Part shown: piece after piece, positions 1 through 29,044 of the stretch
Layout of the letters: every line of letters starts with the position of its first letter
Position numbering within the stretch: the stretch's first letter is position 1
DNA from: Planctomycetota bacterium
GTDB lineage: Bacteria; Planctomycetota; UBA1135; UBA2386
Assembly (NCBI GenBank): GCA_016235155.1
Contig: JACRLW010000115.1
Span: forward strand, 17,115-81,114
Reading direction: 5' to 3'
Length of the DNA stretch: 64,000 nucleotides
Position numbers and translations under genes: made by a program
The notes under the pieces: generated by a model
What the model saw: only the letters and a program-made list of their open reading frames with translations
Database searches by the model: none
Told to the model about the DNA's origin: nothing

Positions 1-1477
1 GAGTCGAGCCAACGAGGACGACGAGTTCGTCCAACCGCGCCTTGTTGCCGATCGGCTGGGAGTGGATGAACGTCGAGAAGACAGCCTGCTCGATCTCCCG
101 GTAGTGCAGCGTCGGGTACTCCTCCTGGACTTCGCGAGCCTTGTGGAGTTCGCCTTCGAGGATCGCAGTCCAGTTGTGGCCCGTTCCTTCGGTCTGCTCC
201 TTGGTAGCGACGGCAGCCAGTTCGCGAGCTGCCTCGCTGACCGATTCCTGGTTCGGAGTCGACAGGAAGACGTTGGGGCCGATGAACGGTGATTCGTCCC
301 ACTTCTCTGCGTCGCGCAAGGCGAGGGCGAACGTGCGGAGCACTCCGCGGGTCCGCTGGAAGCTGCTCATGCCGGTCCACTTGCCGTAGAGCACTTCGGA
401 AAGGTCCGGGTGGAACGGGTAGCTGAGCTTGAAGCGCGCCTCGACGGCCTTCTTGTTCTTCCTGGAGTTCTCGTCCAAGTCGAGGACGCCTTGCAGTCCA
501 GCGATGACGTGCTCCTGGAAACTGTCCTTGTTCTCGATCGACTTCTGGGTGAAGAACCGGCGCCGCAACACCTCGGCGACGTCCTCCTTCAGCACCGGCT
601 GCACGCCTTCTTCCTTCTCGCGGGCGAAGATGTCGGCGATCTCCTTGAGGATCTGCTTGCCGCGCTCGTCGCTCTTCTCGGGGTCGGTTGCGAGCAGCGA
701 GGCCACGAGTGCCGCCTTCTCGACCTTGACGACGGCCTGGCAGAGATACTGGAAGAAATTCTTGAGGCGCCCGAGCCAGGACGAATCAAGACCGACCTTC
801 TCGTGCGCGTACATCAGGACCTCGTCCACCAGGATCAGGGTGGCAAGGTCTTCGCGTTGGGGCAGCCGCAGCAGCTTCTCCATCAAGTTCTCGGCCGGCG
901 CGCTGTCGCGTTCCTCGGCCTTGTCGTCCGGATGCAGCAGCTTGAGCCCTTCTGCGCCCGCGATCTGCCACGCGAGCACGCTCCACGGCTGTCGCAACCA
1001 CCGCACCTGACCGCCTGGAGCACGGACTTCCATGCCCTTCTCGACGTCGAGCTTGTCGAACGGGAGGACCGCGACGCGAGCGCGTGGTGGCTTCGGTCCG
1101 ATCACCTTCTTCCACTCTGCCTGGAACTCACGCACCGTCTGCATGTCGGGCAAGCGATCCGGATCATTGACGAGATGGAACAGCGTGATCAGGGTGTGAG
1201 TCTTGCCGCCACCGTAGGTCAGCTCCAGTTGCCGGATGGCCTTGGTGTTTCGGCCTGCGAGACGCAGGACGACATCGCTGCACAAGACGCGCAGGTTGGT
1301 CGTTGGGTAGGTCAGCGCGAAGAACTCGGCCGGATCCTCGTAGACCGGCCGGCGCTTCTGCTGCATCGCCACCTCGTAGAGGTCGGCGGCGAACAGGGAC
1401 AAGGACAGCTCGCCACTGCGAACGTCGTCGCGCAGTCGCACGACCTTGTGCCACGGAGTCCACGCGGGCTTGCTCAT
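1..1477 (-). CDS. DUF499-like P-loop ATPase, N-terminal ~492 aa only (gene continues past the left window edge)
   Basis: Absent from the ORF track because no stop lies inside the window. Hand translation of the minus strand from ATG (1477-1475) gives MSKPAWTPWHKVVRLRDDVRSGELSLSLFAADLYEVAMQQKRRPVYEDPAEFFALTYPT...IRQLELTYGGGKTHTLITLFHL (Walker A GGGKT). The frame stays open to nt 1 and GC3 is high. The ATG overlaps the TGA (1476-1474) of the upstream methylase gene (ATGA). The family call rests on my memory of the DUF499 N-terminal signature. Confidence 0.75.
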   Translation of the reverse strand, partial: MSKPAWTPWHKVVRLRDDVRSGELSLSLFAADLYEVAMQQKRRPVYEDPAEFFALTYPTTNLRVLCSDVVLRLAGRNTKAIRQLELTYGGGKTHTLITLFHLVNDPDRLPDMQTVREFQAEWKKVIGPKPPRARVAVLPFDKLDVEKGMEVRAPGGQVRWLRQPWSVLAWQIAGAEGLKLLHPDDKAEERDSAPAENLMEKLLRLPQREDLATLILVDEVLMYAHEKVGLDSSWLGRLKNFFQYLCQAVVKVEKAALVASLLATDPEKSDERGKQILKEIADIFAREKEEGVQPVLKEDVAEVLRRRFFTQKSIENKDSFQEHVIAGLQGVLDLDENSRKNKKAVEARFKLSYPFHPDLSEVLYGKWTGMSSFQRTRGVLRTFALALRDAEKWDESPFIGPNVFLSTPNQESVSEAARELAAVATKEQTEGTGHNWTAILEGELHKAREVQEEYPTLHYREIEQAVFSTFIHSQPIGNKARLDELVVLVGST

Positions 1478-4400
1478 CGCTCGTTCTCCTCTTCGTCCTT
1501 CACTTGCAGGTCCACGAACGGCAGCGTCGGCGCAGCCGCGGCGGTCATTCCCCTGGCTCCGATGTGGTTCATGACGCTCTCCAGGATGGCTCGCTCCTCG
1601 CTGCCTTCGGTGGCCAGTTCGATCAGCGCCTGCAGGAGGGCAGGGAAGATCGCACTCTTCCGCAACCCGCGTGCGTCCAGGTACTGGTCGACTCGGGCCT
1701 GGTCGCCAGCCTTCCACAACAGCATCAAGCGGTGCACCTGATCCACCAACGGGATCGCCCGCGCGGGTGCTGGAGCCTCCGCGGCAACGCTCGGGTCATT
1801 GGTGCGAGCACGCGAACGTTCAGCGCCGTCTTCGAGTCCCATTCCCGGCCGCGTGCGTTGCTTCCAAGCCTTCAGGCGGAAGGTGCTGCCGGTGCCCTGC
1901 TCGACATCGCCTTCGGCGTCTCCGCCCTCGCTCTCCTCTTCCTCCGGTTCGTCGGCACCCGCGCGGCCACTGCGCAAGAGTACGTCATAGCGGTCGGCCA
2001 GTTCCCCTTCGGAGAGATTGCACGACACCGCGTAGAGAATGCACGCGCCAGCCGGAGCATCTTCCATGCCGAAGTCGTGACGATGGAGCAGGTAGTAGGT
2101 CGTGACGTCATCGAGGCCGCCCCCGAACTCGTCACCCGCTTCTTTGTGGGTGGCTTCACTGAGAACGCGGCCCACGACGAAGTCGACGACGATCCGCCGA
2201 ACGGCGCGCAGGAACTCCGAGACCGTCATCAACTCTCCTGGCGCGTCTGCCTTCTTGATAATCGGGTGCCTACTGTAGGCCTCCATCGCGGGGCCCGTAG
2301 CAGCCCAGACGAAGTCGGGGCCGCGAATCCCGGCGTCCCAGAAAGTGCGAAGCTGGTCGCGGATCCGCGTGCGCATCTCAGCAAGCACCGATGTGTCCCA
2401 GCCTGGGCGAGCTGCATCCGGCCGACACTTGCAGACCAGCCAGACCGACGATGCGAGCGATGCGCGGGCCAGATTGCGGACGCCACCCCTCATCTCCGTC
2501 ATGATCGGCAAGGAACCACAAACAACGAAACCCGCGTCGATGACTGCCTTGACCAAGGTCTCCCATGCCTTCGGCTGCTTGTTGGCAAAGACGACGACGA
2601 ATCGTCCGTTCGGCACGAGCGCCTTCTTGCAAGCGATGAACGCGCGCTTCATCCCGTCCTCGTACGCGAAGAGAGATTTCTGAGCATCGCCACCGAACCG
2701 GCTAGCATCATCGATCAGTTCCCCGTCGTTGGATTCGTGGTCCCACTTGGGAGCAAGCAAGGTCTCGCCGACATCGCCCTTCTCATTGATGGCTCGCCGC
2801 AGCCAAACGTAGAAGAAGTCCATCAAGTCGGAGTACGGGATCGCGTCGTAGTAGGGTGGATCCGTGACGATGACATCGAATGCGGTTTCTGTTAGAGCGA
2901 TTGCGCTCCCCTTCTTCACGGTCACATCGCAACTGGCATGAACATTCAACATTCCATCAAGGACAAGGCCAATCTTCGAGATCCCACCTGCGAAGTAGCG
3001 GTCAGCCGGTGAAAAGGGATTTGCTTCCGCGAAGTCCCACGTGATTGGCAGGGCAAACCGCAGGAATGTCTGCTTGACCTCACCAGCAGTTGAGTCCCAC
3101 AGGCAGAGGGTGCTCAGGTAGTTAGCGGCGCGGCCAAGTGCGACGCAGAGGTAGTGGGAGATTGCGCGTCGCCAGACTGGCGTTGTTGATCCGGCACCAA
3201 CCAACTCTGAGCAGGACCGAATCGCTCTCGTGAGCACGCCGAGGGCTGCCAGCTGCCGGCCAAGAAAGAGAGACTGCCAGTCCCGAAGACCGTACAGGGG
3301 CACACGGATGCCGAGCGCTTCCTTGTCAGGAAGAGACTCGGACGGAATCCCTCCAGGGACATCCGCGAAGTACCCCTCCAGCTCCTGCTTCGAGAGTGAT
3401 GCGGCAGCCGTCTCTTCAACCGTGGGAAGCCGGAACTCCTTCCCGGCGTCGCCTTCGACAACTACAGCGGTCATGCGCGATGCGAGACGACCCGCGAGGC
3501 CCTCGTGCCGGATGGACTCGGTCTCCATTGAGACCGTGCCCGGCTTGCCGCAGCAAGGACACCATGCACCAGCGCGGCTCATCGTGCCCCGACCAATCCG
3601 CTTGTCGTGTTCGCGACGCGCGGCGTGGTTGGCGCCGACCACTCCGACGCCGCTCTCGACCGCGAACACGACGCCGCTCTTGTCCGCGTTCGGCTCCATT
3701 CGCAGAAGGACTCGCTTCTTGTCCTTCTTCGCGAGCCACAGCGTCTTCAAGAGTGGGATCTCCGCGCGACACTGCTTGCACCGTACGGTCCTCGCCCAGA
3801 GATACGCAACAGTCGGCTTCGCAACCCACCGCGGTGCCGTGGGGTCCCCAAGCCAGAGCTTGTCCTGGTGGTTGAGACTCGACCTCCCCTCGAACTCGCG
3901 GTTCAACGCAGCGAGATCAGACTTCCCCTGCGCGTCAACGGGTACGCGCTGCATGGGACGAGAACTGACGTGCTTGCCTCCCTCAGCGGTTTTCATGAAG
4001 TCTGCGTAGACCGGATAGCGATCGGCAAGCTCCTTGCGGGCCGCGTCGAGCACGTGCCGACCCCAGGCGCGAACGTGCCACGCAAGATCCGCGTCGAGAA
4101 AGGCGGGATCGAAGCCGGGCCCGGTGAGCAGCTTCTGCTGCTCCTTTGCCTCGTCGAGTCCAAGGTCGCGCAGGAAAGTCCTGATCTGTGTCTTCTTCAA
4201 GCCTTGCGACTCGAAGAACTCCGTCATGAAGTCACGGTCACATAGAGCGAAATCGGGAAGCGGCAGCTTCTTGCGGGCCAGCTTCTGCGGGTACTCGAGC
4301 GTGCACTTGAGGATGAACCACGCGACCGGGTTGATGTCGTTGGCCGTCACCTCGCAGCCAAGTCGCATTGCTTCCAAGGGGATCGCGCCACCTCCAGCGA

Positions 4401-4814
4401 ACGGATCGAGTACGCGTGGCGCGCGACCCCCGTACGCCTTCTTGATCTCGTCGCGAAACCACTGCATGCCCTCCTCGTTCTCGGTCTCGCGCCCCCAGTG
4501 CAGGATGCCACCGACAGTCTCGTCGACGACGCGATCCTCGACTCTGCCGTTCGGCAGCTTCTTCTTCTTGGTGTTCTTGACGAGCTTGCCCCCGATGCGC
4601 TCGCACAGTTCCCTCCGTGCTTCCGGCGTGCCCGGGTCGGGCAGCAGCGTCGCGATCAATGCCGCACGGCACGCGGCCAGCGGTCGCCGCGCCGGCCAGA
4701 TGTGCAAGGTCGAGATGTGGCCGTGCCGCACGTTCTTCTCGTGCACCGAGTCGATCGATGTCTGCTTCAGAGGAAACGCGACCTCGATGAGGCGGGGGCG
4801 GTCTTGTGGTTCGG

Positions 4815-4818
<4 letters not shown>
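1474..4818 (-). CDS. DUF1156-type DNA methyltransferase (N6A/N4C class) with internal Zn-ribbon
   Basis: ORF 1474..5010. The likely start is the internal ATG at 4818 (MTEPQDRPRLIEVAFPLKQTSIDSVHEKNVRHGHISTLHIWPARRP, a DUF1156-like N-terminus), which overlaps the helicase stop as ATGA. SAM motif I: VLDPFAGGGAIPLEAMRLGCEVTANDINP. Motif IV: VIVTDPPYYDAIPYSDLMDFFYVWLRR. Cys pairs: CKQCRAE...CPCCGKPG. Confidence 0.85.
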
Positions 4819-8444
<3,626 letters not shown>

Positions 8445-8487
8445 GCAGCAGGATCCGTAGCAGAGTCTGTTGGTCCAGATTCCGTAG

Positions 8488-8503
8488 TATAGCATGTGCT
8501 ATA
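8488..8503. promoter_or_regulatory. 16-bp palindrome TATAGCA-TG-TGCTATA in the AT-rich leader of the helicase operon (candidate operator / -10 region)
   Basis: Read directly: tatagcatgtgctata. The arms TATAGCA and TGCTATA are exact reverse complements. It lies about 45-60 nt upstream of the GTG at 8444 and is unusually AT-rich for this genome. Confidence 0.35.
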
Positions 8504-8965
8504 TGTGCGATGCAACCCCTAGAAGGCTTCCTGGTGATCCTGTCGAGCCCCATGCACGTGATCCCCGCAACCAAGCTTCGCACGGCCCGGGGGCGTCGTG
8601 TGTTTAGCCGGGGACGGCCGCGGGACGCACCGGGCCTACACGGCGACCTACCTCGCGGCGGTTGCCAGCGGCTTCTCTCTACGTCGTGGTGTAGGCGCCG
8701 TGGACGTTGTCGCGGCCTTGTTCACGGCCCCGTCACGATCGAACCAAGGCGGCGCGTAGGTTTGCGAGGACTGAGGGGACCCGACTGATGCGAAGCAGCG
8801 GGAGGGCGCAGCCCTCCGCCCCGGCACCACGCCAGCCCGCCGTGACGCCTGGGGCCAGGGCACTCCGATCTCCGCCAAACTCCGCGATGCCTTCGATCGC
8901 GCTCGCCCCAGACACCTCCATCGCCTCCGCCACCGCCGTGGGCTTGCCGATGTGCCCGCTACGAC

Positions 8966-9502
8966 TCATGCTGCCCACGCCGCTTTCGATCGCGCCGCCA
9001 TCCGCGACGCACTCGCCGACTGCGGCTTCCTTTCCTTCAGCCGACAGTGACTTCCTCCAGTGTTTCTCAGCACGCGGACGATGCGGATACCTGGGAGCGT
9101 ACGCCGGACGGCGTCCTGCAGGGCATCGACGTCCGCCGCGTCGAAGCGCCGGAAGAAGTCGCCGGCCGTGGTCTGATCAGGGATGCGCTGCGTGCCGACG
9201 GCGTCGAGATAGGCCTCGTTGTTCCGCAGCACCTCGAGGTCTTCGAGGCAGGAGCCGCCGCTCATGGCGTTGAACGCAGGGTTGAGGACATGGTCGGACT
9301 CGGAGCATGGCTTGTGGAGTTGGTCCTGTGCCGGCCAGTTCATGTCCCGGAGCCGATGCTCGATGCCCCGCTTGCAGCGACCAACTTCACGGGCTCTACT
9401 CGTGCTCACTCGAAACGCCTCTTTCGTGGTAGCGGTGGTGGTCCTGCTGAAACCTCCTCCACGCAAGGGAAGGTTGCGTTTCGAGTCGCTTCTCACGGGC
9501 AA
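8966..9502 (-). pseudogene. IS1380-family transposase, N-terminal fragment only
   Basis: The 178-aa ORF contains LNPAFNAMSGGSCLEDLEVLRNNEAYLDAVGTQRIPDQTTAGDFFRRFDAADVDALQDAV. This matches the N-terminal region of IS1380-type DDE transposases as I remember them. No DDE catalytic region follows, and the downstream frames are broken. Confidence 0.45.
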
Positions 9503-9595
9503 GCAAACGCGAACTGCGCTGGATCAAGGCCTAGCAGCCATCGGTCACCTTCACAAGCGAGGTCGTTGCGGGCAGCCCCCGCCTGGGGGCATTGC

Positions 9596-9622
9596 CGCAA
9601 GTTTTCGAAAACCTCGCAAGTT
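9596..9622. promoter_or_regulatory. Perfect 12-bp palindrome GTTTTCGAAAAC (9601-9612) bracketed by direct repeats CGCAAGTT (9596-9603, 9615-9622), upstream of the ABC/KS operon
   Basis: Read directly. It lies 25-50 nt upstream of the ATG at 9647. GGAG at 9636-9639 is a plausible RBS. Confidence 0.3.
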
Positions 9623-9646
9623 CGGACCTCCCACCGGAGCTAAGTC

Positions 9647-10630
9647 ATGAATCGCCGAAGATCCGTTGTTGCAGTCGCTGTGCTCGTGGTTACGCTTGGA
9701 GTTGCGTGGTGGGTCAGCAACCGCGGTTACGAGACGTCCCGCCGCACTCCCATTCGCCTCGCATATGCAACCCAGGTGAGCAACCTCCCCTTCTTCTACG
9801 CCTTGGAGAACGGTGAGTTCGCGCGACGAGGTCTCAAGATCGAACTGCTGCCTCCAATGCTCCAAGCTCCAGATATCGTCGCCGCTGTTCTGGGAGGACA
9901 GGCGGACGGTGCTCTGGATACGGCACTTCTGTCGATCATACAAGCGGACCAACGTGATCCGGGCGTGCTGAGAGTAGTGCTTTGGACGATCGCCAGCAAA
10001 GACAACGCATTCATGAGGATCGTTGTCCCCGTCAAATCGAACATCCATTCTCTCAACGACTTGCGTGGCAGGAGACTTGGCCACTTTCCGAGTCCCCAAC
10101 TCCGTGCGATTTGTTGGGCCATCGCCAAGCGTATAGGTGCCGCCGCGGACGCGATAACGTTGCAACCCACTCCTCCGACAGCCGTGATCGAAGCACTCGC
10201 TGCCGGCGAAATCGACGCTGCGCTTGTGCTGGAGCCAACCGGGACAATTGCAATCGAGCGCGGGATCGCGCGCTCATTGACGGACTCTCCCGTGGTGGAC
10301 TTGGCACATGACGAGATACCCATTGGCGCGTTCTCGCTGTCTGGTGCGTTCTGCACAGACCACCCTGAGGATGCACGCCTCTACGTAGAGGCACTCGAAG
10401 CGGGCGTAGCACTGCTCCGCGCTAATCCCAGGAGCGCACCTGGTTTGATTGCAAAGTATACGGCTGCAAAGAACCCGGATACCGCGGCGAAAGTCACGTA
10501 CCCACGCCATTGGCTGCGTCGCGAAGCGATCGCTGATCACTTCGATTACTTCATGAACCTACTTCGCGAGTCAGGAGTCGAAGTCCCGAAACTTGCTGCC
10601 TCGGACCTGGCTTATCAGGACCAGGAGTGA
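9647..10630 (+). CDS. ABC transporter substrate-binding protein, NMT1/SsuA/TauA-like (NitT/TauT family), N-terminal membrane anchor
   Basis: MNRRRSVVAVAVLVVTLGVAWWV anchor, then IRLAYATQVSNLPFFYALENGEFARRGLKIEL...IDAALVLEP, a typical type-2 periplasmic binding fold of sulfonate/nitrate/taurine binders. A GGAG RBS precedes the start. Confidence 0.8.
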   Translation: MNRRRSVVAVAVLVVTLGVAWWVSNRGYETSRRTPIRLAYATQVSNLPFFYALENGEFARRGLKIELLPPMLQAPDIVAAVLGGQADGALDTALLSIIQADQRDPGVLRVVLWTIASKDNAFMRIVVPVKSNIHSLNDLRGRRLGHFPSPQLRAICWAIAKRIGAAADAITLQPTPPTAVIEALAAGEIDAALVLEPTGTIAIERGIARSLTDSPVVDLAHDEIPIGAFSLSGAFCTDHPEDARLYVEALEAGVALLRANPRSAPGLIAKYTAAKNPDTAAKVTYPRHWLRREAIADHFDYFMNLLRESGVEVPKLAASDLAYQDQE

Positions 10631-10637
10631 CCCGGCG

Positions 10638-11414
10638 GTGTCAGCCCTCAGCATTGTCAATATCCACAAGCGTTACGCGAAGACCGTCGTGCTCGATGGC
10701 TTTGGCCTTGACGTGGATGACGGCGAGATTCTCCTATTGGTGGGTCCTAACGGCGGCGGCAAGTCAACCCTTCTCGGGATCGCTCATGGATCGCTATCGG
10801 CCGATAGCGGCAAACTTGTTAGCACATTTAACCGACATGCGCTTCTTCCGCAGAGATCGGCAGAGACACTATTTCCGTACTACAACTTACGGCGCAACCT
10901 CTGCCTCCCGCTAATTGTCGCGCGCGTTCCGCCGCGGGAATGGGACCAGCGAATCATGGTTTCCCTTAAGGAAATGGGACTCGACGGCGCCGTAACCCCG
11001 CTTCTAGCACGGCACCCGTTTGAAGTATCTGGAGGTCAGCAGCAGCTAGTAACACTCGCGCGGTCGTTGCTAGAGCGACCCGACCTGCTGCTTCTGGACG
11101 AGCCCGCGAAGGAGCTCGATCCCTGGAACGCTCAGTCGCTAATGCACGCCATACGGCACTGGGCTTTCGCTCAACCTCGTCGCGCGGTTGTGATTACCTC
11201 CCATAGCCTTGAACATGTTCTTCGAATCGCAACCCGAGTTCTCTTGCTGGACGGCCCGCCCGTCCGGGTCATTGGTAGCTGGACCCTCGGAGGACTGGGC
11301 ACTGAGAGCTCGCTTGATGGGGCTCGAGATAGAGTCGCGGAGGAAGTGCGTTCGGCCGTACACTCGGCGCTTCGATCCTCGGCCGCGCAAACTGCCCCCG
11401 CAAGGAGCCTATGA
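10638..11414 (+). CDS. ABC transporter ATP-binding protein (NitT/TauT-like)
   Basis: Walker A GPNGGGKSTLLG, Q-loop LLPQR, signature VSGGQQQ, Walker B LLLLDEP, H-loop ITSHS. GTG at 10638 (VSALSIVNIHKRY) sits 8 nt after the SBP stop; the track ORF begins at 10593. Confidence 0.85.
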   Translation: MSALSIVNIHKRYAKTVVLDGFGLDVDDGEILLLVGPNGGGKSTLLGIAHGSLSADSGKLVSTFNRHALLPQRSAETLFPYYNLRRNLCLPLIVARVPPREWDQRIMVSLKEMGLDGAVTPLLARHPFEVSGGQQQLVTLARSLLERPDLLLLDEPAKELDPWNAQSLMHAIRHWAFAQPRRAVVITSHSLEHVLRIATRVLLLDGPPVRVIGSWTLGGLGTESSLDGARDRVAEEVRSAVHSALRSSAAQTAPARSL

Positions 11415-12157
11415 GACGGCTAACTTGGATTGTGCCCCCCGCGGTCGCGCTCGTCCTTTGGGTGCTGATCACGCACAGCAGGGGCGTCTCCAACGCGCTT
11501 CTTCCCCGACCAGGAGCCGTTCTGGCTCGCCTCCTCTCTCTCGTCACGGACTGGAACCTGGGCCTCGATCTCCTCGTTACGCTTCGCTCTGCGGTTACCG
11601 GGCTCCTAGTTGGCTTCGGGATGGGATTCATCCTGGGCCTTTGTTCAGGCGTCCTGCACTGGCTTGACCGCATGCTGTCCCCATCGCTCCACTTCCTGAG
11701 GTCCATCCCCTCTGTGGCGTACTACCCCCTCATCATCCTTTACCTAGGTTTTGGAGAAACGGGTCGCGTTGTGTTGGTGGCAGTTCCAGTATTCCTGCTG
11801 ACGTTTGTCTCGTGCGTTACTGCCGTCCTTTCAGTGAACCGTCACCGCCGGGCGTACTTGAGCGGGCTTGGGGCGTCGCGATGGCAGATCTTCCGCCTTC
11901 TTCTCGTCTGGGAGGCGATGCCCGCAGCAGTCAATGCCCTGCGACTTGCCGTTTCGCTGTCGCTGGTCCTGGTTGTCTTCGGTGAGATGACGATCGGAGG
12001 ATCATCCGGGATTGGTGCTCGCCTTCGAGATGCCCGAGAGGTTTATGCACTCGAAGACGTGTTTGCAATCATTCTTGTCTTGGGTGTCATTGGATGGCTG
12101 GCAAACCGTGCCATCTCGACGCTGGAAGAGCGACTCCAAGTCGCCTGGGGGAGATAG
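11411..12157 (+). CDS. ABC transporter permease (BPD_transp_1-like)
   Basis: Six hydrophobic segments. The start overlaps the ATPase stop (ATGA at 11411-11414). Size and pattern are typical of SsuC/TauC-like permeases. Confidence 0.85.
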   Translation: MRRLTWIVPPAVALVLWVLITHSRGVSNALLPRPGAVLARLLSLVTDWNLGLDLLVTLRSAVTGLLVGFGMGFILGLCSGVLHWLDRMLSPSLHFLRSIPSVAYYPLIILYLGFGETGRVVLVAVPVFLLTFVSCVTAVLSVNRHRRAYLSGLGASRWQIFRLLLVWEAMPAAVNALRLAVSLSLVLVVFGEMTIGGSSGIGARLRDAREVYALEDVFAIILVLGVIGWLANRAISTLEERLQVAWGR

Positions 12158-12159
12158 CA

Positions 12160-13365
12160 GTGATCATGCCGGAAGTTCGAGGCATTGGTGTGGCAACGCC
12201 AATTGGCGTCTCGGTTCCCAGTTTCTGGACCGGCGCGACTCGTGGCCGCTGCGCGATCCAGCGCGATGCGGGATTCGAAAGAGCCGGCCTCCGTAGCCAG
12301 GTCTGCGCGCGTGTTGACGAAGACGAACTTCGGGCCTCGAAGTGGTGGCGTACAGCGTGGACGGAGGAGCCGCGGCACGTCCAATTGGCCTTGGTGGCGG
12401 CGGCGGAAGCATGCGAGCCGGGACTGTATATCGATTCCACGCCCAGTCGCCGATTGGGGTTGGTGTTCTCGACGGCGATGGGGCGTGTTGATAACTTAGA
12501 AACCGGAGCGACTTCCAAGCTCGTGAGAGGGAGGACGCACGCGCGCCACGCGATCCTCGGTGACGCGCTAGCGCGTGAATTCGACATTTCCGGGCCGGTG
12601 ATAGGGATATCCGATGGCTGCACGGGCGGCTTGGATGCTTTTATTACGGCGTGCGAGATGATTGAGGATGGCGATGTCGACGCGTGCCTTACGGTCGCAA
12701 GCGATGCTCCGCTGGCGACGCTAACAATGGCTGCCATGGACAATCTGGGGGTTCTGTCGAGGCGCAACGACGCCCCTGAGCTCTCGTGCCTTCCTTTCGA
12801 CCGCGCCCGCCAGGGCATGGTGATGGCCGAAGCGGCCGGGGCACTATTCCTGTGCGGAGGTCGTCCGGCATCATCGTCGACGCACCTGTCCATGGCGGTG
12901 GTGAGAGGCCACGCGTCCGTTTCGAATTGCCGGTCAATGGTTTCACTGCGTGACGCAGCGGCGGACATGGCTCGCTGCGCACGCGGTGCGATGTTGGCGG
13001 CGGGCGTCAGCGTCCAGGGAATCGATCATCTCAATCTGCACGGGAGTGGAACACGTCAGAATGACGAAGCGGAAGGCGCCGCATTGCGAGAAGTTTTCGG
13101 CGACCACCTGGACCGCATTCCCGCCATCGCGATCAAGTCGCTCACGGGTCATGGACTGGCGGCATCGAACACCGTGGAGCTGGTCGCGGAGGTAATGGTG
13201 CTTCAAACGGGATTATTGCCGCCTGCGCGTGGGCGAGGGTCAGACAACCCCTGGGGTGTACGACTCGTTACCGGCGAGGCCGCTCACCATCGGGCGGTCA
13301 CAGGACTGAAGATGAACCACGGCTTCGGAGGATTTCACTCATGTGTGATTCTAAGTCGCCCCTAG
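12160..13365 (+). CDS. Beta-ketoacyl synthase, type II PKS KS-alpha / FabF-like, catalytic triad intact
   Basis: Active-site Cys in GISDGCTGGLDAFITACEMIEDGDVDAC. His in LNLHGSGTRQNDEAEGAALREVF. His in AIKSLTGHGLAASN. Start is GTG 12160 or ATG 12166, directly after the permease stop (12155-12157). Confidence 0.8.
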   Translation: MIMPEVRGIGVATPIGVSVPSFWTGATRGRCAIQRDAGFERAGLRSQVCARVDEDELRASKWWRTAWTEEPRHVQLALVAAAEACEPGLYIDSTPSRRLGLVFSTAMGRVDNLETGATSKLVRGRTHARHAILGDALAREFDISGPVIGISDGCTGGLDAFITACEMIEDGDVDACLTVASDAPLATLTMAAMDNLGVLSRRNDAPELSCLPFDRARQGMVMAEAAGALFLCGGRPASSSTHLSMAVVRGHASVSNCRSMVSLRDAAADMARCARGAMLAAGVSVQGIDHLNLHGSGTRQNDEAEGAALREVFGDHLDRIPAIAIKSLTGHGLAASNTVELVAEVMVLQTGLLPPARGRGSDNPWGVRLVTGEAAHHRAVTGLKMNHGFGGFHSCVILSRP

Positions 13366-14462
13366 CCTTAGGCGGAGATGAGCCGCCGGACCGTCTTATC
13401 GCGAATCGCGTGCCGAGGCTCCGAGCGGGACGATGGGTAGCTTCAGACGATGCCCCCCGGAACGCAGACGACGAGGGAATCTCCCAGTGTCGTGACTCAC
13501 AGTTCCGCGCTGTCGCTGAACTCACTCCGAAGTCGGAACGCGAGGCGGCGACATTCCGTGAGTCGGACGCATTCGTTCGAGCTGGCGTGGTGGCGGTGCG
13601 GGAGACTGCGAAGGCTGCGCGACTGGATACGACGGTCTTCCGAGACGACCGAAGCATCTTCGCAGCCACAGCATACGGTGGGGTGGGGTTCGCTGAAGAG
13701 GAAGATCGTGTCTTGGTGTCGCGGGGACCGCTCGGGGTAAGCAAGTACCTTTCCACTGGCTGGTTTCCCGCCTCGCTTGCAGGGCACGCGTCGATTCTGT
13801 TCGGCGCAGGTGGCCCATCGCGGACGGTGATCTCCGATTACGGAGGACTGGGAGCTCTCTACCTCGCCTCAAGGTCAATTCGCCGTGGAGTATCCCGGGA
13901 GGCTATCGCGGTTGCGGCAGACGCAGGGTTAGGTTCTGCTACCTCTTCGCCCGAGCGATCGCCCGCCTCGTGTGCGGTCGCCTTGACTCCTGACGGTGCT
14001 ACGTCGCCGAAGCTCACCGCAGTCGTACTTGCGAGTCGAGGTACGTCGATGGCGCCGGAGGAGGAGTGCCTCTCGTTGGCTCTCCAACAGGCGTGCTGGG
14101 AGCCCGAAGCAGTCGATCTGGTTATTGCCTCCACCGGCGACGAACCGCCCGATTGGCGGGGCGCGGCCGCCGTGTTCTGCCGCGACAGAGGTGCACGGGC
14201 GTTGACCTGGAGATATGCGAGGCTTCCGCGGGCCGCGGGAGCAGTGGAGTCGTTGTTGTGGCCTTGCCTCGTGGCCGCGTTGTTGGGAAGGACCGCCGAC
14301 TCGATCTTGAAGGTCTTGTCATCTGAGACGAGAGATCGCGGCGTCAATTGGGCAGGCGTTCGCCCTGGTTTGGTCCAGCGCGCAATCGTGATTGTGGGCG
14401 GAGCGGGAGCGATCGGCGGGTGTGTGGCTATGGAGCTTGACACCAGGGGAGTCACGCAATAG
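13341..14462 (+). CDS. KS-like protein lacking the Cys/His/His catalytic residues (chain-length-factor / KS-beta-like pseudoenzyme)
   Basis: TVISDYGGLGALYLASRSIRRGVSREAIAVAADAGL aligns with the KS active-site loop, but the Cys is replaced or deleted. The STGDEPPDW and RLPRAAGAV regions replace the HGSGT and GHGL motifs. It overlaps the KS stop by 25 nt, and the start is uncertain. Confidence 0.6.
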   Translation: MCDSKSPLALGGDEPPDRLIANRVPRLRAGRWVASDDAPRNADDEGISQCRDSQFRAVAELTPKSEREAATFRESDAFVRAGVVAVRETAKAARLDTTVFRDDRSIFAATAYGGVGFAEEEDRVLVSRGPLGVSKYLSTGWFPASLAGHASILFGAGGPSRTVISDYGGLGALYLASRSIRRGVSREAIAVAADAGLGSATSSPERSPASCAVALTPDGATSPKLTAVVLASRGTSMAPEEECLSLALQQACWEPEAVDLVIASTGDEPPDWRGAAAVFCRDRGARALTWRYARLPRAAGAVESLLWPCLVAALLGRTADSILKVLSSETRDRGVNWAGVRPGLVQRAIVIVGGAGAIGGCVAMELDTRGVTQ

Positions 14463-14510
14463 CCTTCCCCCCGATGGGAGCAATACAATAAGCCATTCCC
14501 AAGACCTACC

Positions 14511-16490
14511 ATGACTGACGACGAATACCAGCGCCTCGAGAGTCTGCGGCTCGTGACGTTCAGTTGCCATGAGGCAGCGCTGCGCGAACTAAAGCCGCTC
14601 CTGAGCGTCAGACGGGAGGTCAAGAGACATCACCTCTTTGAGTTCTTCCTGCGCGAGCCCCTCAGGCAATCGCAACGTTCACCCAACACGCAGAATAGGA
14701 GCTGCTATGTTCCTTTCATAGATCGCGAGGTGGCCGCGCGTGGTTACATCCTCGACCTGCCGCCTTCCGAGACTGACCTCGCGGGCTTTCTTTCGACGCT
14801 CGCGGCCAACGTCTCGGGCACGGGCCCGGTCGCGCTGCCGCTTGTTTCAGCCGCCGCGACGGAGGAGTGCAGAGCGGCCACTGAATTGTCGGACTTGGGA
14901 AGCATCGAAAAGCGACCGGGCTACAACGCTGTTAGCAATGCGTGGAAAGACGGAAACCTCGGATACATCTACAAGAGACTGGAGACCGCCAAGAAGTTTC
15001 GTGACGGGTTCGCTTCCGTCCTGAAGAACCGAGAACTCACACCCCTGCACAGGGCGGCCTTCGCGAACGTCTTCGGGCCGCTGGGGTTGCATCTTCTCTA
15101 TCCGAAGGCACCCGGAGAACTTCTACATGTCGTGGTTTCGATTGCCACCAAGTCGCGCTTCTTCGGTGTCTTGGCTTTGATCATGGACCTTGCACCGAGT
15201 TCAGTGGCAACTAAACGAGAGGCCGAAACGCATAGGAAGAGCCTCATAGCATGCTGTGGAGCGGCTCTCTTGCGCATCTCGCACAAGTTCTTCGTGCCTG
15301 CAATGGTACTGAACTACCAAGGTCAACTGGAAGCGCAAGTCGATGCAAGTTTCGCGCATCGAGGCTCTGGTGCAGTCACGAGAGCAGTCACGAGAGCAGT
15401 CAAACGGGCATGCGACGAGGCCGCGTGCGTCTCACATGCTTCGGCCCCGCTCTCTGGGTTCCAAGACGGTGCGCAAGACGTGCAGGACGCCTTACAGCAG
15501 AACCATCGACTTGAGGAGACACTCGCGCGGGTCTGGCAGGAACGGCTCGAAGTACTATCGTCGCGCAGCGTGAAGAAAGAATCCTTGGTCCGCATTCGCG
15601 AGGGCCTTATGTTCAAACGAATGAAGGTCGCGTCGCCAGGAATGCTGAAGACTGTTCACGACGCGATTCGAGCTGCGAATTCGGTTCGCGGACGTAAGCT
15701 AGATACGGATCCGATTCCATGCGTGCTCGTTGTCGGGTCGGCGGGTTCTGGAAAGGAGAATATCGCGAAGCTGATCCTCGTATTGGCGAGTGGATTTGCC
15801 AATGCGAACGTGACCGTGCAAAACATGGCCGGTGTCAGGGACACGGACGCCATACAACAAGAGATATGGCGGTCGATGGCGCCGGGGCAGTACGGGTTTC
15901 TCTGGGATGAGCTCAACAGCCTGTCGATGGATGTGCAAGGTGCGCTCCTTCGCTTCCTTGAGCAGGGGGAGGTGCAGGGTAAACCGGTCCCAGTTGGGTC
16001 CCGGCTCTTGGTGGTAGGGATCGTCAACGAGGATCCGGGGCAGCTGACGCTGCGCGACGTGCGCGAGAGAACGAGGGACACCGTCGTATTCGGAGAAATG
16101 CTGGGTTCGCTGCTATACGAACATTTCAAGACCAAGAGTCGCATGCGAGACGACCTTTACTTCAGAATCAGGCGCTGTGGCGAGGTTCGCATTTTGGACC
16201 TCGACGACAGGCGAGAAGACATCCCTTCCATCCTGCGTCACCTCTATAGCCGCGCAGGGGGGAGTGAGGCTAACCAACGCGTTTTTTTCACGTATGCGGC
16301 GCTTAGCGCGCTTACGAATCCGGAGATTAGGTGGAAGGGTAATGTGCGCCAGCTTGAGCTAGTGGCCCGCGAGGTACGCACTGAGGTCGATCAGAAGGAG
16401 CGGCTTTCTGGTGGCAGCGACCCCTTTGTGATTGTGGACGAATGGATGGTCCGCCGGAGTATCATTCGCGCACGGGTTGTCGACAGGTGA
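14511..16490 (+). CDS. Sigma54-interaction-type AAA+ ATPase with long N-terminal (possibly GAF-like) sensor region; no GAFTGA loop and no C-terminal HTH
   Basis: Walker A VLVVGSAGSGKENIAKL. Walker B region GFLWDELNSLSMDVQGALLRFLEQGEV. Sensor II region GNVRQLELVAREV. N-terminal HVVVSIATKSRFFGVLALIMDL resembles a GAF beta-strand pattern. No GAFTGA-like sequence lies between Walker A and Walker B. Confidence 0.75.
   Translation: MTDDEYQRLESLRLVTFSCHEAALRELKPLLSVRREVKRHHLFEFFLREPLRQSQRSPNTQNRSCYVPFIDREVAARGYILDLPPSETDLAGFLSTLAANVSGTGPVALPLVSAAATEECRAATELSDLGSIEKRPGYNAVSNAWKDGNLGYIYKRLETAKKFRDGFASVLKNRELTPLHRAAFANVFGPLGLHLLYPKAPGELLHVVVSIATKSRFFGVLALIMDLAPSSVATKREAETHRKSLIACCGAALLRISHKFFVPAMVLNYQGQLEAQVDASFAHRGSGAVTRAVTRAVKRACDEAACVSHASAPLSGFQDGAQDVQDALQQNHRLEETLARVWQERLEVLSSRSVKKESLVRIREGLMFKRMKVASPGMLKTVHDAIRAANSVRGRKLDTDPIPCVLVVGSAGSGKENIAKLILVLASGFANANVTVQNMAGVRDTDAIQQEIWRSMAPGQYGFLWDELNSLSMDVQGALLRFLEQGEVQGKPVPVGSRLLVVGIVNEDPGQLTLRDVRERTRDTVVFGEMLGSLLYEHFKTKSRMRDDLYFRIRRCGEVRILDLDDRREDIPSILRHLYSRAGGSEANQRVFFTYAALSALTNPEIRWKGNVRQLELVAREVRTEVDQKERLSGGSDPFVIVDEWMVRRSIIRARVVDR
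15372..15402 (+). repeat. In-frame 12-bp tandem duplication GCAGTCACGAGA x2 plus a partial third unit (encodes AVTR-AVTR-AV)
   Basis: Read directly: gcagtcacgaga gcagtcacgaga gcagtca. It lies inside the AAA+ gene linker region. Confidence 0.7.
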
Positions 16491-16748
16491 CTCGGTTTTC
16501 GCAACATCATAGACATGGGTCTGGTGTCTACGGCGCGTATGCGCGTGTGCGGCCTCTCTAGAGCAAAGTATGTCGGACTCGACACTATGCACATTCCCGG
16601 CAGCATGCGACGGTCGCATGAACGGGCGGTGAGGGGCCTGGGCGGGGCGGCGGCAGTGACCTCGGGGAGGCCGGCTCGGCGGAGCGCACCGGGCTCGGCT
16701 ACCTCCGAGACCCAACCGCCGTGCCAACTTCCCGCTCGGACCCCTCCG

Positions 16749-16779
16749 CCACCGTTGACCAACGGTGTTTCAACGGTGG
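16749..16779. repeat. 10-bp inverted repeat CCACCGTTGA ... TCAACGGTGG with a nested CAACGGTG direct repeat, in a ~570-bp non-coding gap
   Basis: Read directly: ccaccgttga ccaacggtgtt tcaacggtgg. No convincing ORF on either strand between 16491 and 17063. Confidence 0.5.
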
Positions 16780-17063
16780 TTCGTCGAAACCGTCACAAGT
16801 TTGGGACCTACTCGGAAGCCCTGCCGTCGAGGTCCAGGCCCGTCGACGCCAGTCCCGCGACGCTCCCCCCGAAGACCTCGAAGTTCACCTCCCGGGACCG
16901 CTTCGGCGACCCCTTCCCGTTCCCCCGGGAGGAGGATCGTCGCCGACCAACGCGGAGCCGAACCAGGCCACGACTACTGACGGGATCCGCGGGGGACGGT
17001 TCATCGATTGCTATCGCCCTGCCGATTAGCGGCCGCCGCGGTCCGGCCCGCTGCATCGGCTTG

Positions 17064-17588
17064 TTATGCGCCGCCCCCCGTTGCTGCGAGCAGTGATTTC
17101 CCCGCGTCACAAAGACGCACGAGTCCCCCGGCGTACCGGTAATCGGCGGGTTCGACGTCAGTTCCATTCCGTTCCGACAGATCGACTGTCCACTCCCCAG
17201 GGAGGTGGAACTCTTTCCGGTAACTCACGATTCGTAGATCCCACCTGGGGCGGTACGGATCGTGCGCAAACGCGTTGCGCAGGCACCGTACAAAGCAGAA
17301 GTAGTCACGAGCTCGGGGCTCCGGGTAACGCAGCCTGTTGGGGATCTTGATCTCGAGGGCTGTATCCAGGGCGATCGCGAGGTTCTGTGTCGCGATCATC
17401 TCCAACCCCCAAGCCGCACGGTCCTTGTCGAGACTCTCGATTTCCTCCGTCCCGAAAGACCAGGGTCCCTTGGAGACGCCAGCCAAGCTCGTCTGGAACG
17501 TCCCAGCTCTGCCGCTAAACACGCCTCGGATCAGAATGCTCAGTACGAGCTGGTCACGAGCAAGATCAAGCGTGTCGACTCGTTTCAC
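17064..17588 (-). CDS. Hypothetical protein with HEPN-like Rx4H motif (CLRNAFAHDPY)
   Basis: 174-aa ORF with a GTG start and coding-like third-position bias on hand translation. The only recognisable motif is R-N-A-F-A-H (Rx4H, with the RNxxAH flavour seen in Abi-type HEPN families). GC is lower than in the core genome. Confidence 0.5.
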   Translation of the reverse strand: MKRVDTLDLARDQLVLSILIRGVFSGRAGTFQTSLAGVSKGPWSFGTEEIESLDKDRAAWGLEMIATQNLAIALDTALEIKIPNRLRYPEPRARDYFCFVRCLRNAFAHDPYRPRWDLRIVSYRKEFHLPGEWTVDLSERNGTDVEPADYRYAGGLVRLCDAGKSLLAATGGGA

Positions 17589-18371
17589 CTTTCGTTCTTG
17601 GTGCTCATGGCGTCTCGGCCGCTGACCCGCGCGAGGGAAGCGAGCGTCGGGTCCTGCGGCTCGATGGGCGGTAGTCTATCCACAATCCCTCGAAGTGATC
17701 ACGTCGAGTAGTGGCTGAATCTGCTCGGGTCTGGCAGCCGGAAAGCTCACCCGATCGATCGCAGCGTCCGGGTCATCGGCGTAGTCCGTGAGATGTGCGA
17801 CTCGCAGCCGAAGCACGCAAACGACTCGATGTCGCCGGAGCACTCGAACGACATCGGCTAGTAACCAGTGCGGGATGTCTACGAAAGGCAGAATCCCATC
17901 ACCGCCAAGGCGAGTCGGCGCACGGCCGGGGTTCACTCGAAGACCGCTTCAAGGCCACCTGTTTCGCATGGGTCTGTCCGCTCAACGTCTTGCCGCTCCG
18001 CCGCGCTCGGCATGGCGCGCGTTGGCTGCTGCGGCGGATTGGACAGCAGTCTACCGTCCGCGCATCGTCCGGTCGCGGGCGCCCGACCAGGAACTGGTGT
18101 AGAGCACTTGCCTTGGCTTCATGCCCCGGGGTCCGGCACCTCGATCGCAGCCAGGATGCCGAAACCGGTCCACCTGCCGTCGAGCGATCAGTCCTCGATG
18201 AGCGCCTCGGCCGCCATCACGGACTGAATGAACGTGATCGGGTCACTCTCGGACCACGCATCACGAACCGGCCACAGGAACAGCTGTCCACCGCCACCTC
18301 ACGATCGAGCCCGGCGAGCCGTCGTTGATCCCCGCCGGGCATCCGGTCCGTCCCGCTCGAATCAGCGGTAC

Positions 18372-18767
18372 TCAGTTGGTGGACAACACGCTCTGCAACT
18401 TCTCGATCGTCGCCCGCAGCTGATCGCGCTCGCGCTCCACGCCCTTGATGTGCTGGACGATGCCGTCGATGCCGCTGAGTGCCGAGGCCTTCGCCTTGGG
18501 CGGGCGACCTGGACCCCGGCGGACGACGCCAGCAGCGGCGGTCTTGGCGGCGGCCTTCGCCGCCTTCTTCGCGGCAGCCTTCGCCTTCTTGGCCGGGTTC
18601 GCCTTGACCAACCCGAGCAGCAGCTTCGCTCGCCCGAAGACGACCGGGTAGATCTTGTGGCCCTTGGCCTTCGCCTTGGCCGCGACGTCGGCGTAGGCGA
18701 CCTTGGGGTCCTTCTGGAGCATGCTGTGGACGAACGCGAACGCGTCTTTGCCTTTCTGGTTGGCCAT
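18372..18767 (-). CDS. Lys/Ala-rich histone H1-like DNA-binding protein with AT-hook (RGPGRPPK) and C-terminal coiled coil
   Basis: The internal ATG at 18767 (MANQKGKDAF...) is preceded by AAGGGAGG 6 nt upstream. Also present: AKKAKAAAKKAAKAAAKTAAA and RRGPGRPPKAK. The track ORF extends to 18821. Confidence 0.7.
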   Translation of the reverse strand: MANQKGKDAFAFVHSMLQKDPKVAYADVAAKAKAKGHKIYPVVFGRAKLLLGLVKANPAKKAKAAAKKAAKAAAKTAAAGVVRRGPGRPPKAKASALSGIDGIVQHIKGVERERDQLRATIEKLQSVLSTN

Positions 18768-18929
18768 CGTGCCTCCCTTATCGGCAGGAGCCGGGCGATG
18801 TTTCAACGAGCAACCGGGCATTCACTCGCCGCTCCAGGGCGATAGACTGCTGCGCGACAGCCAGTTCCAAGCTTCCAGCTCTAAGCCAACTCCGAGCAGC
18901 CGCCCGCCCGTCGGGCATCGAGTTGGCCC

Positions 18930-20206
18930 GTGTCCACAGCCGAACTGCGCGTCGAGACCGTCGCGCTCGAGCGTCTCTTTCCCTCGCCGTCGAACCCCCG
19001 CCGCAACGACGAGGCGGTCGAGCATGTCGCGGCGTCGATCCGGCGCTTCGGGTTTCAGCAGCCGATCGTCGCGAAGCCTTCGGGCGAGATCGTCGCGGGC
19101 CACACCCGCTACCGCGCCGCGAAACAGATCGGGCTCGCTGAGGTGCCCGTGGCCTGGTTCGGCGGCACCGACCTCGACGCGACGGCCTATCAGATCGCCG
19201 ACAACCGGACTCACGAGTTCGCGAGCTGGGACGACGAGGCCCTCGCCAAGCTGCTGGTGCAGCTCCGCGAGGAGGACGCGCTGGAAGGCGTCGGCTTCGA
19301 CGACGACGACATCGATCGACTGATCGCGGAGCTCGACACCGAGACCAAGGACCTCGACGACGAGGGCGCCGGCGAGCCACCCGAGCGCCCCACTTCGCGT
19401 CGCGGCGATCTCTGGCTCTTGGGCTCCCACCGCCTCCTCTGCGGCGACTCCACGAATGCCGACGACGTGGCGCGGCTGATGAACGGCGAGAAGGCCACGC
19501 TACTCGCGACCGATCCGCCCTACCTCGTCGACTATCAAGGCGGCAACCATCCGCAGTCGTCGGTGAACCGGCCCGACGTCAAGGACAAGCACTGGGACGA
19601 CTACGTCGATCCGCAGACCAGCGTCGAGTTCTTCGCGACGTTTCTCCGCCTCGCGTTGCAGCACTGCGTGGAACGCGTGCCCGTCTACCAGTGGCACGCG
19701 ACGCGGCGCCAGGTGCTCGTGGAGGAAGCCTGGAAGGCGAACGGCTTGCTCGTCCACCAGACGCTTGTTTGGGCCAAACGCGCTCTCACTACCTGTGGGC
19801 CCACGAGCCCTGCTTCTACGGCTGGCGCGAGGGCTCCATGCCCGAGAAGGATCGCCGGCCCGATCCCGGCGAGCGCACGGTGTGGGACGTCGATCAGCAG
19901 GGCGAGAACGATGGGGTGCATCCAACTCAAAAACCGACGCTGCTCTTCGAGAAGCCGATCACGTTCCACACGCGGCGCGGTGAAGTCGTGATGGAACCGT
20001 TCAGCGGCAGCGGCACGCAGCTCATCGCGGCCGAACGTCACGGCCGCCGCTGCTTCGCGATGGAGCTGTCGCCGGCCTTTGTCGACGTCGCGGTGCTCAG
20101 GTGGCAGAGGGCGACCGGCCAGCAGGCCACGCTCGACGGCGACGGCAGCAGCTTCGACGACGTCAGCGCACAGCGCAGCGTCGCCGCGGAGGAGCACGCC
20201 CCGTGA
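18930..20206 (+). pseudogene. ParB-like nuclease domain / N4-N6 DNA methyltransferase fusion (phage/plasmid type), frameshifted near 19778
   Basis: Frame A (18930..): PSPSNPRRNDEAVEHVAASIRRFGFQQPIVA...GHTRYRAA (ParB/Srx), LLCGDSTN, LLATDPPY, ...HQTLVWAK. Frame B (from 19778): TRSHYLWAHEPCFYGW...VHPTQKPTLLFEKPI...VMEPFSGSGTQLIAAERHGRRCFAMEL. The two frames share a single nucleotide at 19778. Confidence 0.8.
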
Positions 20207-22794: not shown

Positions 22795-22901
22795 GCAAGT
22801 TCAAGACTGCCTCACGCTACGGCGCTTGCTAGCCTGCGGTGCGAGAGCTCACCAAGAGTTGGTGAGTGCTCCTGGTCACATCCCCGAGCAGGCGGTTGAA
22901 G

Positions 22902-28970: not shown

Positions 28971-29044
28971 TGGGTCCTGCAGGACTCGAACCTGCAACCA
29001 ACCGGGTATGAGCCAGCTGCTCTGACCAATTGAGCTAAGGACCC
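28971..29044 (-). tRNA. tRNA with CAT anticodon (elongator Met, or Ile2 if lysidine-modified); not an initiator
   Basis: Minus-strand fold: GGGTCCT TA GCTC AATTGGTCA GAGC A GCTGG CTCATAC CCGGT TGGTT GCAGG TTCGAGT CCTGC AGGACCC A (74 nt). It forms a full cloverleaf with a G1-C72 pair and no GGG/CCC anticodon stem. CCA is not encoded. Confidence 0.9.

Follow-up and report, generated by a model that had tools for sequence, protein, structure and literature searches.

A complete Hma (type-1 BREX-related) operon on a planctomycete genomic island, with a helix-turn-helix domain fused to HmaA and a conserved upstream palindrome as its candidate operator

Hma, a trio of helicase, methylase and ATPase, was put forward as a candidate defence system with 1,638 instances in 26 phyla (Payne 2021, PMC8565338). 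The trio has since been reclassified as type-1 BREX-related (BR) systems, BREX standing for bacteriophage exclusion, with its proteins homologous to BrxC, PglXI and BrxHII of type-3 BREX, with a mechanism like that of restriction-modification (R-M) proposed for it, and with earlier sightings credited to the groups of Aravind (2013) and Koonin (2020) (NAR 2026, PMC12839542). In experiments with the Halomonas system, HmaA alone protects E. coli from T4, this protection requires helicase motif VI and the PD-(D/E)xK residues in its NOV_C domain, and on its own the C-terminal domain nicks supercoiled plasmid in the presence of Mn2+; the domains listed for this HmaA are Snf2, Helicase_C and NOV_C only, and regulation within the Hma system is stated as not known (Liu 2024, PMC11232893). 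Here we describe an operon of this kind at the left edge of a 64,000-nucleotide stretch of contig JACRLW010000115.1 (hereafter the window), which derives from a Planctomycetes metagenome-assembled genome (MAG) from groundwater. By comparison of its proteins the operon is a complete Hma operon, and thus a member of a system that already has a name and is the same as type-1 BR, and its HmaA carries an N-terminal helix-turn-helix (HTH) domain, with a 16-bp perfect palindrome upstream of the gene. The joint explanation that we favour, at a probability of roughly 0.8, is that a complete and apparently intact Hma operon resides on a genomic island, that it would act by an R-M-like mechanism, and that the HTH of HmaA may repress its own operon through the palindrome TATAGCACATGCTATA.

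The locus consists of open reading frames (ORFs) on the minus strand at 4815-8495, 1474-5010 and 1-1477, the last of which runs off the window edge at nt 1. Within them we place hmaA at 4815-8435 (1206 aa), hmaB at 1474-4818 (1114 aa, a DUF1156 amino-methyltransferase) and hmaC at 1-1477, where the window holds residues 1-492 of 1106 (a DUF499 AAA+ ATPase, BrxC-like). The stop codon of hmaA and the start codon of hmaB share an ATGA at 4815-4818 and those of hmaB and hmaC an ATGA at 1474-1477, in agreement with an earlier interpretation of this DNA made from its letters alone (the sequence-only reading), which had described three large minus-strand genes overlapping at these two junctions. The same 4-nt overlaps are found in L082, an 89%-identical relative from another Planctomycetota MAG in which hmaABC is equally compact, and from these overlaps we infer that the three genes are translationally coupled. 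For hmaA, the possible starts are GTG 8435, GTG 8444 and ATG 8495; since the last lies within the palindrome and the predicted promoter, GTG 8435 is the most likely, and it is also the start annotated by NCBI in an 89%-identical relative (P0001). Residues of HmaA are numbered from this codon throughout.

All three proteins found their best matches in PADLOC-DB among the Hma models: HmaA with PDLC00659 at 2.9e-160 (protein residues 103-1198 against model positions 66-1150 of 1176; runner-up DrmD at 1.7e-96), HmaB with PDLC00661 and PDLC00660 at 4.3e-109 and 6.5e-106, and HmaC with PDLC00662 at 1.2e-58, the latter using the 492 in-window residues alone. These models beat those for DrmD, BrxH, PglX, mad2 and the type-2 proteins (PLD-helicase, DUF1156 and DUF499), and reciprocal searches assigned none of the proteins to a different family. 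The gene arrangement that PADLOC defines for Hma, with the genes on one strand, each present once and no more than three embedded genes between neighbours, is found here in its tightest form, namely one strand, a single copy of each gene, 4-nt overlaps and zero embedded genes. The sequence-only reading had seen an immunity module of methylase, SNF2 helicase-nuclease and P-loop ATPase, had noted that comparative surveys flagged the DUF499/DUF1156 neighbourhood, and had left open whether the module equals a named system. Profile comparison now assigns the module to Hma, or type-1 BR, a system whose Halomonas HmaA has been tested experimentally, and the remark on comparative surveys is right. Its statement that the layout is not that of classical R-M, BREX or DISARM holds as far as layout goes, yet the three proteins themselves are homologous to those of type-3 BREX.

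Several related systems were considered for this locus and rejected. The NCBIfam model DISARM_DrmD scored 336 bits against a cutoff of 610, and the locus has none of the DISARM genes DrmA, DrmB and DrmC. For MADS (the mad1-mad8 set) the sole match was to mad2, weak and local (7.4e-11) and lying over the motif that binds S-adenosylmethionine (SAM). The type-2 BR models of NCBIfam stayed far from their cutoffs (phospholipD_antiphage 147 of 1100, DUF1156_antiphage 154 of 1000, DUF499_antiphage 64 of 1200), and classical BREX was dismissed as well; no PglZ, BrxA or BrxF lies in or beside the operon. Neither HKD and DUF3780, the marks of type 2, nor PglZ and iSTAND, those of type 3, gave a Pfam match in the operon, in a 156-aa gene downstream of it or in the upstream ORFs; we therefore assign the locus, on its domain content, to type-1 BR with a variant N-terminus of HmaA, its remaining features still being those of type 1.

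With Hma as described (Payne 2021, PMC8565338; Liu 2024, PMC11232893) the operon shares its three families and their order, and with type-1 BR (NAR 2026, PMC12839542) a DUF499 ATPase, a DUF1156 N6-methyltransferase and a Swi2/Snf2 helicase with a C-terminal, active PD-(D/E)xK restriction endonuclease. Pfam recovered in HmaA, besides the HTH, SNF2-rel_dom (5e-09), ResIII (6e-10), Helicase_C (4e-23) and NOV_C (1.3e-13), the last being the family that the sequence-only reading had named DUF3883, and the closest solved relative by sequence search was RapA (2e-26). In an alignment of 20 homologues the motifs GAGKT (149-153), DEAH (248-251) and motif VI (629-636) are invariant, and TAT (298-300) is intact as well. 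The NOV_C nuclease domain, encoded at 4944-5216 on the minus strand, holds D1112, E1126-V-K1128 and E1142, all invariant across the same 20 homologues, so that by sequence HmaA has the C-terminal active PD-(D/E)xK nuclease of type-1 BR. These residues, matched by motif and spacing, fit the pattern of the quadruple mutant that abolishes defence in Halomonas HmaA, and the helicase and nuclease residues mutated there are also present here. The SNF2-type DEAH helicase with a restriction-endonuclease-like C-terminus that had been read from the translation is thus recovered at domain and motif level.

For HmaB, Pfam found DUF1156 (1e-17, residues 14-64), the motif I region of the D12 class and the DPPY region of N6_N4_Mtase. 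Motif I (FxGGG, 140-144) and DPPY (653-656) are split by an insert of about 500 aa that holds a Cys4 cluster, and at least 97% of 76 sequences retain FxGGG, DPPY and the cysteines C347, C350, C420 and C423. Judged on these features, HmaB would have the methyltransferase architecture of type-1 BR, an N-terminal DUF1156 and a target-recognition insert nested in an N6-methyltransferase core, and the single Cys4 cluster of the nested insert is a further trait that it shares with that type. HmaC matches DUF499 (2e-18), as does the full-length protein of the extended contig described below, and its Walker A (GGGKT, 89-93) and Walker B (DE, 218-219) motifs are conserved in at least 97% of 64 sequences. 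The SAM-dependent DPPY methyltransferase and the P-loop ATPase of the sequence-only reading correspond to these two proteins, and the domain search that it had proposed returned HTH_3, SNF2, Helicase_C, NOV_C, DUF1156 and DUF499. No solved structure related to HmaB or HmaC was found by sequence search. The catalytic motifs of all three window proteins are intact.

Differences from the described systems are few. Embedded genes, which about 63-67% of Hma systems have, are absent from the window operon; its host is a planctomycete MAG, and its HmaA has an N-terminal XRE-type HTH that is outside the three domains reported for the Halomonas protein. Published type-1 BR helicases have a TUDOR domain as their N-terminal-most element, where the window HmaA has a Cro/C1 HTH, and HmaC lacks the HEPN fusion present in about 56% of type-1 taxa. 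To type-3 BREX (BrxC, PglXI/BrxXI, BrxHII) all three proteins are homologous and the helicase is likewise RapA-like, with PADLOC matches of HmaA to BrxHI (3.4e-90) and BrxHII (4.1e-73) and of HmaB to PglXI (1.3e-10); in contrast to that system, the locus has no PglZ, BrxA or BrxF, the nuclease is fused to the helicase, and the ATPase is of the DUF499 type, that of BREX being of the BrxC/DUF6079 type.

The sequence-only reading had warned that the operon continues beyond nt 1 and that components might be missing there. The extension comes from a Logan contig of a groundwater metagenome (L001), which matches window positions 1-6594 at 100% identity and adds 2790 nt to their left. With it the Hma trio is complete: HmaC reaches its full 1106 aa and lacks an N-terminal HEPN domain, and no other known component turned up beyond it. 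Two nucleotides after the hmaC stop begins a gene of 156 codons (L001 8441-8911, beyond window nt 1), followed after about 90 nt by a terminator-like hairpin, and it is probably co-transcribed with hmaC. Its product has a Cys...His pattern (YCLSCIPAC ... GGWHMYVIY) and only 15 relatives in the databases, mostly planctomycete, one of them named 'Peptidase C39-like' by UniRef. As a fourth Hma component it was rejected in favour of a local passenger, given that it has no match in Pfam, PADLOC or NCBIfam and no homologue in 80 related loci or in L082.

These 80 loci were collected by a scan with HmaB that kept one genome per species (50-62% identity), and they are distributed over Planctomycetota, Acidobacteriota, Chloroflexota, Bacillota, Pseudomonadota, Latescibacterota, Verrucomicrobiota and other phyla. 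By tblastn the helicase core was recovered in 71, NOV_C in 72 and HmaC in 71 of them, and wherever the contig was long enough the order was hmaA-hmaB-hmaC on one strand, so that the co-occurrence which the sequence-only reading had named as a check is found across many phyla. Most loci have kilobase gaps between the genes (median about 2.0 kb between hmaA and hmaB and about 1.4 kb between hmaB and hmaC), in keeping with the embedded defence cassettes that Hma is known to carry, and only 3 of 60 are compact at both junctions as in the window. In L082 a type II CBASS (cyclic-oligonucleotide-based antiphage signalling system; patatin effector, DncV-like nucleotidyltransferase, E1/E2 and JAB) lies at 356-4837, divergent from the compact hmaABC. 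The same compact operon beside this different neighbour indicates that the mobile unit is the operon together with its control region. In two further, distantly related loci retrieved separately, L083 (3948-5636; Methanobacteriota MAG) and L084 (9740-10927; Bacteroidales MAG), Schlafen/AlbA_2 plus HATPase_c_4 genes directly follow hmaA; the Schlafen/AlbA_2 gene of L084 is embedded between hmaA and hmaB, L083 stops short of hmaB, and a RAMP gene lies nearby in L083.

An R-M-like mechanism would give each protein its own part. HmaB, as a DPPY amino-methyltransferase with a nested target-recognition insert, would mark host DNA at a specific motif; HmaC, as a BrxC-like AAA+ ATPase of the ORC/Cdc6 type, may assemble or scan as a recognition scaffold; and HmaA, a RapA-like Swi2/Snf2 translocase with a C-terminal PD-(D/E)xK nickase, would be the effector that damages unmarked invading DNA. 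Weighing against this division of labour, the protection from T4 conferred by Halomonas hmaA alone equalled that of a larger construct, T4 grown on a host overexpressing HmaB did not escape and infected HmaA cells equally well, and some 15-20% of hmaA genes have no hmaB or hmaC nearby (Liu 2024, PMC11232893). As HmaA alone was sufficient in this sole experimental study and no escape of T4 was seen, methylation-based discrimination is unproven for any Hma system. One could conclude that HmaA acts essentially alone, in a manner resembling abortive infection, and that HmaB and HmaC are accessory, independent or otherwise modulating and do not form a methylation-based module for telling self from non-self, which we consider unlikely. 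T4 DNA is hypermodified, and T4 is therefore a poor test of methylation escape. Furthermore, the order and strand of hmaA-hmaB-hmaC are fixed in all of the 80 loci where the contig allows a statement, the genes overlap by 4 nt in both the window and L082, and HmaB and HmaC have kept their catalytic motifs in at least 97% of 64-76 sequences, a sign that both are under selection. Methylation is, moreover, used by the homologous trio of type-3 BREX (NAR 2026, PMC12839542). An R-M-like division of labour, in which methylation would separate self from non-self, hence remains our preferred reading of the trio.

The feature that sets this HmaA apart is its N-terminus. Residues 12-66 (8238-8402, minus strand) match Pfam HTH_3 (5e-09) and HTH_31 and form an HTH of the Cro/C1 (XRE) type. 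An AlphaFold2 (AF2) model of residues 1-210 places four helices at 12-66, a block with a predicted local distance difference test (pLDDT) score of 83-92, followed by a disordered linker at 67-90 and by helices that lead on to the RecA fold; the model shows no beta-barrel over these 210 residues, and a TUDOR domain as in published type-1 BR helicases is thus not seen. Positions 1-65 of the PADLOC HmaA model have no match in the window protein. Foldseek matches of the HTH model included the N-terminal domain of CapH, P22 c2, HipB, the controller proteins C.AhdI, C.BclI and C.Kpn2I, and Aca10, with probability 1.0 and with weak E-values (0.02-0.1) due to the shortness of the domain.

C proteins autoregulate R-M systems. 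Those of the type II systems found by Foldseek (C.AhdI, C.BclI and C.Kpn2I) resemble the present case in combining a small Cro/C1-type HTH with a palindrome at the promoter of a restriction operon, and C.AhdI aligns with the window HTH at 34% identity over 53 columns with a root-mean-square deviation of 1.6. They differ in being small free-standing proteins, the window HTH being fused to the effector.

The HTH is strongly conserved. R20, Q27, S37, R43, W44, E45 and N46 are invariant in alignments of 20 and of 30 sequences, and L25, A31 and N42 are invariant in the former and nearly so in the latter; S37, N42, R43, W44, E45 and N46 are residues of the recognition helix. Most of the best 120 HmaA homologues have HTH_3 listed, and at least two of those without it (P0007 and P0027) are truncated gene calls; several homologues bear the JGI label 'helicase/XRE family regulator'. 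Fusion to an HTH is the rule in the clade of the window HmaA. Neither an HTH nor an operator is mentioned in the main texts of Payne 2021, Liu 2024 and NAR 2026, or in the supplementary text of the last.

Upstream of the HTH-bearing hmaA lies the 16-bp perfect palindrome TATAGCACATGCTATA (8488-8503), a candidate operator for this HTH and a member of the motif class TATAnCAnnTGnTATA, which recurs upstream of hmaA genes with an HTH. TATAnCAnnTGnTATA is not known to resemble C-boxes. Strictly defined, the motif has 30 sites in 1.59 Mb of related loci. With one or two exceptions these are found upstream of the HTH coding start, at up to 330 nt from it; 28 of 54 loci with an HTH have such a site, and none of 5 loci with an HTH-less hmaA does. 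Scored with a position matrix, 44 of the 54 loci exceed the 99th percentile of the background, again with none of the 5 HTH-less ones, and the window site is the top scorer; TATAGCACATGCTATA is also its own sole match in the 64-kb window, with 0 expected and none in 100 shuffles. All 28 strict sites have T1-A2-T3, C6, T10-G11 and T15-A16, invariant positions found on both arms. Beyond the set of 54, the palindrome is present in three more loci, namely L082, L083 and L084, and in L082 it is identical and accompanied by a -35-like TTGCAC, with a different spacer and different flanks.

In the window the palindrome falls within a promoter-like sequence, TTGCAT-N18-TATACT (8486-8515, minus strand), which we read by eye, covering its spacer and -10 element. 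The right arm, TGCTATA, contributes a TG positioned two bases upstream of the -10, the arrangement known from extended -10 promoters. This geometry suits repression. HTH and palindrome co-occur among the loci, and together the HTH of HmaA and the conserved palindrome suggest that the operon is likely to control its own expression: the HTH would bind TATAGCACATGCTATA over the spacer and -10 of the operon promoter, and the effector would repress its own operon in the manner of a C protein.

A number of observations weigh against autoregulation. The position matrix was built from 28 of the 44 loci that score with it and is partly circular, 10 of the 54 loci with an HTH have no significant palindrome, and the HTH-less control set comprises 5 loci only. 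A consensus promoter scan of 8300-9700 called nothing, the promoter read by eye scoring 8 of 12 and staying below the threshold. A TTGACA-N5/6-palindrome layout recurs in several loci, and in many relatives the palindrome does not cover the -10 and is found 3-8 nt upstream of a separate TTGACA. As the position varies from locus to locus, regulation may not have the same sign everywhere, or it may be dual.

From such facts one may ask whether HTH and palindrome form a regulatory pair at all. The palindrome could be no more than an AT-rich, bidirectional extended -10 in GC-rich DNA, its right arm following the extended -10 consensus TGnTATA, and the HTH could serve for contacts with target or invader DNA or with proteins; the variable position relative to the -35 and the 10 site-less loci with an HTH would then find a ready explanation. 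We think this improbable. A promoter alone needs no two-fold symmetry, yet the 28 strict sites have invariant bases on both arms; one layout has the palindrome upstream of a separate TTGACA/-10 promoter, of which it cannot be the -10; the palindrome is absent from the 5 loci with an HTH-less hmaA; and across phyla the HTH keeps an invariant recognition helix, to which an invariant DNA site corresponds. Repression of the operon by the HTH of its own HmaA therefore stays part of the reading that we prefer.

A second conserved element, CACGCGA(T), occurs among the related loci (L002-L084), no more than about 50 nt away from the palindrome of hmaA. Of 43 loci, 23 have it 14-16 nt past one of the palindrome's ends; both mirror orientations occur, the -35 hexamer is enclosed by palindrome and element, and about 0.03 occurrences per locus would be expected by chance. 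No exact copy of CACGCGA is present in the window or in L082. Taken more broadly, it is conceivable, and we offer this only tentatively, that in a large clade of Hma systems spanning several phyla HmaA has exchanged its TUDOR domain for a Cro/C1 HTH and become its own transcriptional controller through a region composed of TATAnCAnnTGnTATA and CACGCGA(T). If so, HmaA drawn onto invading DNA would leave the operon derepressed, which would make restriction inducible by infection and limited in dose, and a defence effector would be sensing its own free concentration.

As a defence module the operon adds little, being one more Hma or type-1 BR system, here from an uncultivated planctomycete. It is nevertheless a clean and minimal example, with no embedded genes, intact motifs and a preserved promoter region, most of its relatives being interrupted by defence cassettes. 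The replacement of TUDOR by an HTH and the conserved palindrome would be a modest addition to a known system, of which the autoregulatory part is unproven. The pair provides a testable hypothesis for how potentially self-toxic helicase-nuclease systems could be restrained, and if binding is true, an invariant recognition helix and operator across phyla would constitute a compact, portable repressor-operator pair.

The operon is located on a genomic island linked to a tRNA-Met gene (28971-29044, minus strand), which marks the end of a stretch of lower G+C content. G+C is 0.63 over 1-18300 and 0.63-0.65 over the island as a whole, against 0.70 beyond the tRNA. Beside the tRNA lies a tyrosine integrase (27341-28582), and further in are a second tyrosine recombinase (21659-22594), an HTH protein (22866-23879) and a DUF3987 primase-helicase (24199-26763). 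The island context given by the sequence-only reading, an insertion sequence (IS) remnant, integrases and a HEPN gene, is borne out for the first two items. The IS remnant is a fragment of an IS1380-family transposase (8966-9502, minus strand, 178 aa), about 470 nt upstream of hmaA, that covers only model positions 26-115 of 419 (E 8e-10), the N-terminal quarter. The HEPN gene is probably the ORF at 17064-17588 (minus strand, 174 aa), in which an RNAFAH (Rx4H) motif is the one feature pointing to HEPN; Pfam, PADLOC and NCBIfam gave no match, and a single-sequence AF2 model reached a pLDDT of 31.

Given the IS1380 fragment close by and a G+C content of 0.63-0.65 against 0.70 in the flanking chromosome, the operon might be regarded as a decayed passenger of the island that has lost its defence function. 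This is very improbable in our view: no reading frame is interrupted (1206, 1114 and 1106 aa, all full length), all invariant catalytic residues are present, the promoter region and the palindrome are intact and the same as in the 89%-identical relative, and G+C at third codon positions is 0.76-0.84 in the operon, which speaks for amelioration to the host and continued coding constraint. An intact operon on the island is accordingly what we adopt.

The 3' end of the tRNA-Met is directly repeated over 16 nt (TCTGGGTCCTGCAGGA), with copies at 28722 and 28969, 247 nt apart. A search for a distal copy came up empty in both the window and L001, and as this nearby repeat is the only one, the left boundary of the island is placed outside the available sequence.

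The genes directly upstream of the operon (9647-16490, plus strand) are not mobility genes. They encode an NMT1-type binding protein, an ABC ATPase and a permease, then a pair resembling ketosynthase and chain-length factor, and also a 659-aa AAA+ protein with a lid domain like those of sigma-54 activators and RtcR; this set of ABC transporter, ketosynthase and AAA+ genes is an unusual cargo beside a defence operon, within the low-G+C island. Further along, a DNA methyltransferase with a ParB_N domain (18930-19991, plus strand; PADLOC MTase_II 2.5e-52) resembles orphan methylases carried by mobile elements, and adjoining it is a lysine- and alanine-rich, histone H1-like ORF of 149 aa on the minus strand, the pair lying within 18372-19991. 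A second patch of lower G+C (0.65) at 55599-59939 encodes a DUF1570/TPR protein, DUF1570 being a planctomycete family and so in line with the planctomycete origin that database names indicate, and a 923-aa protein of the clostripain family (Peptidase_C11).

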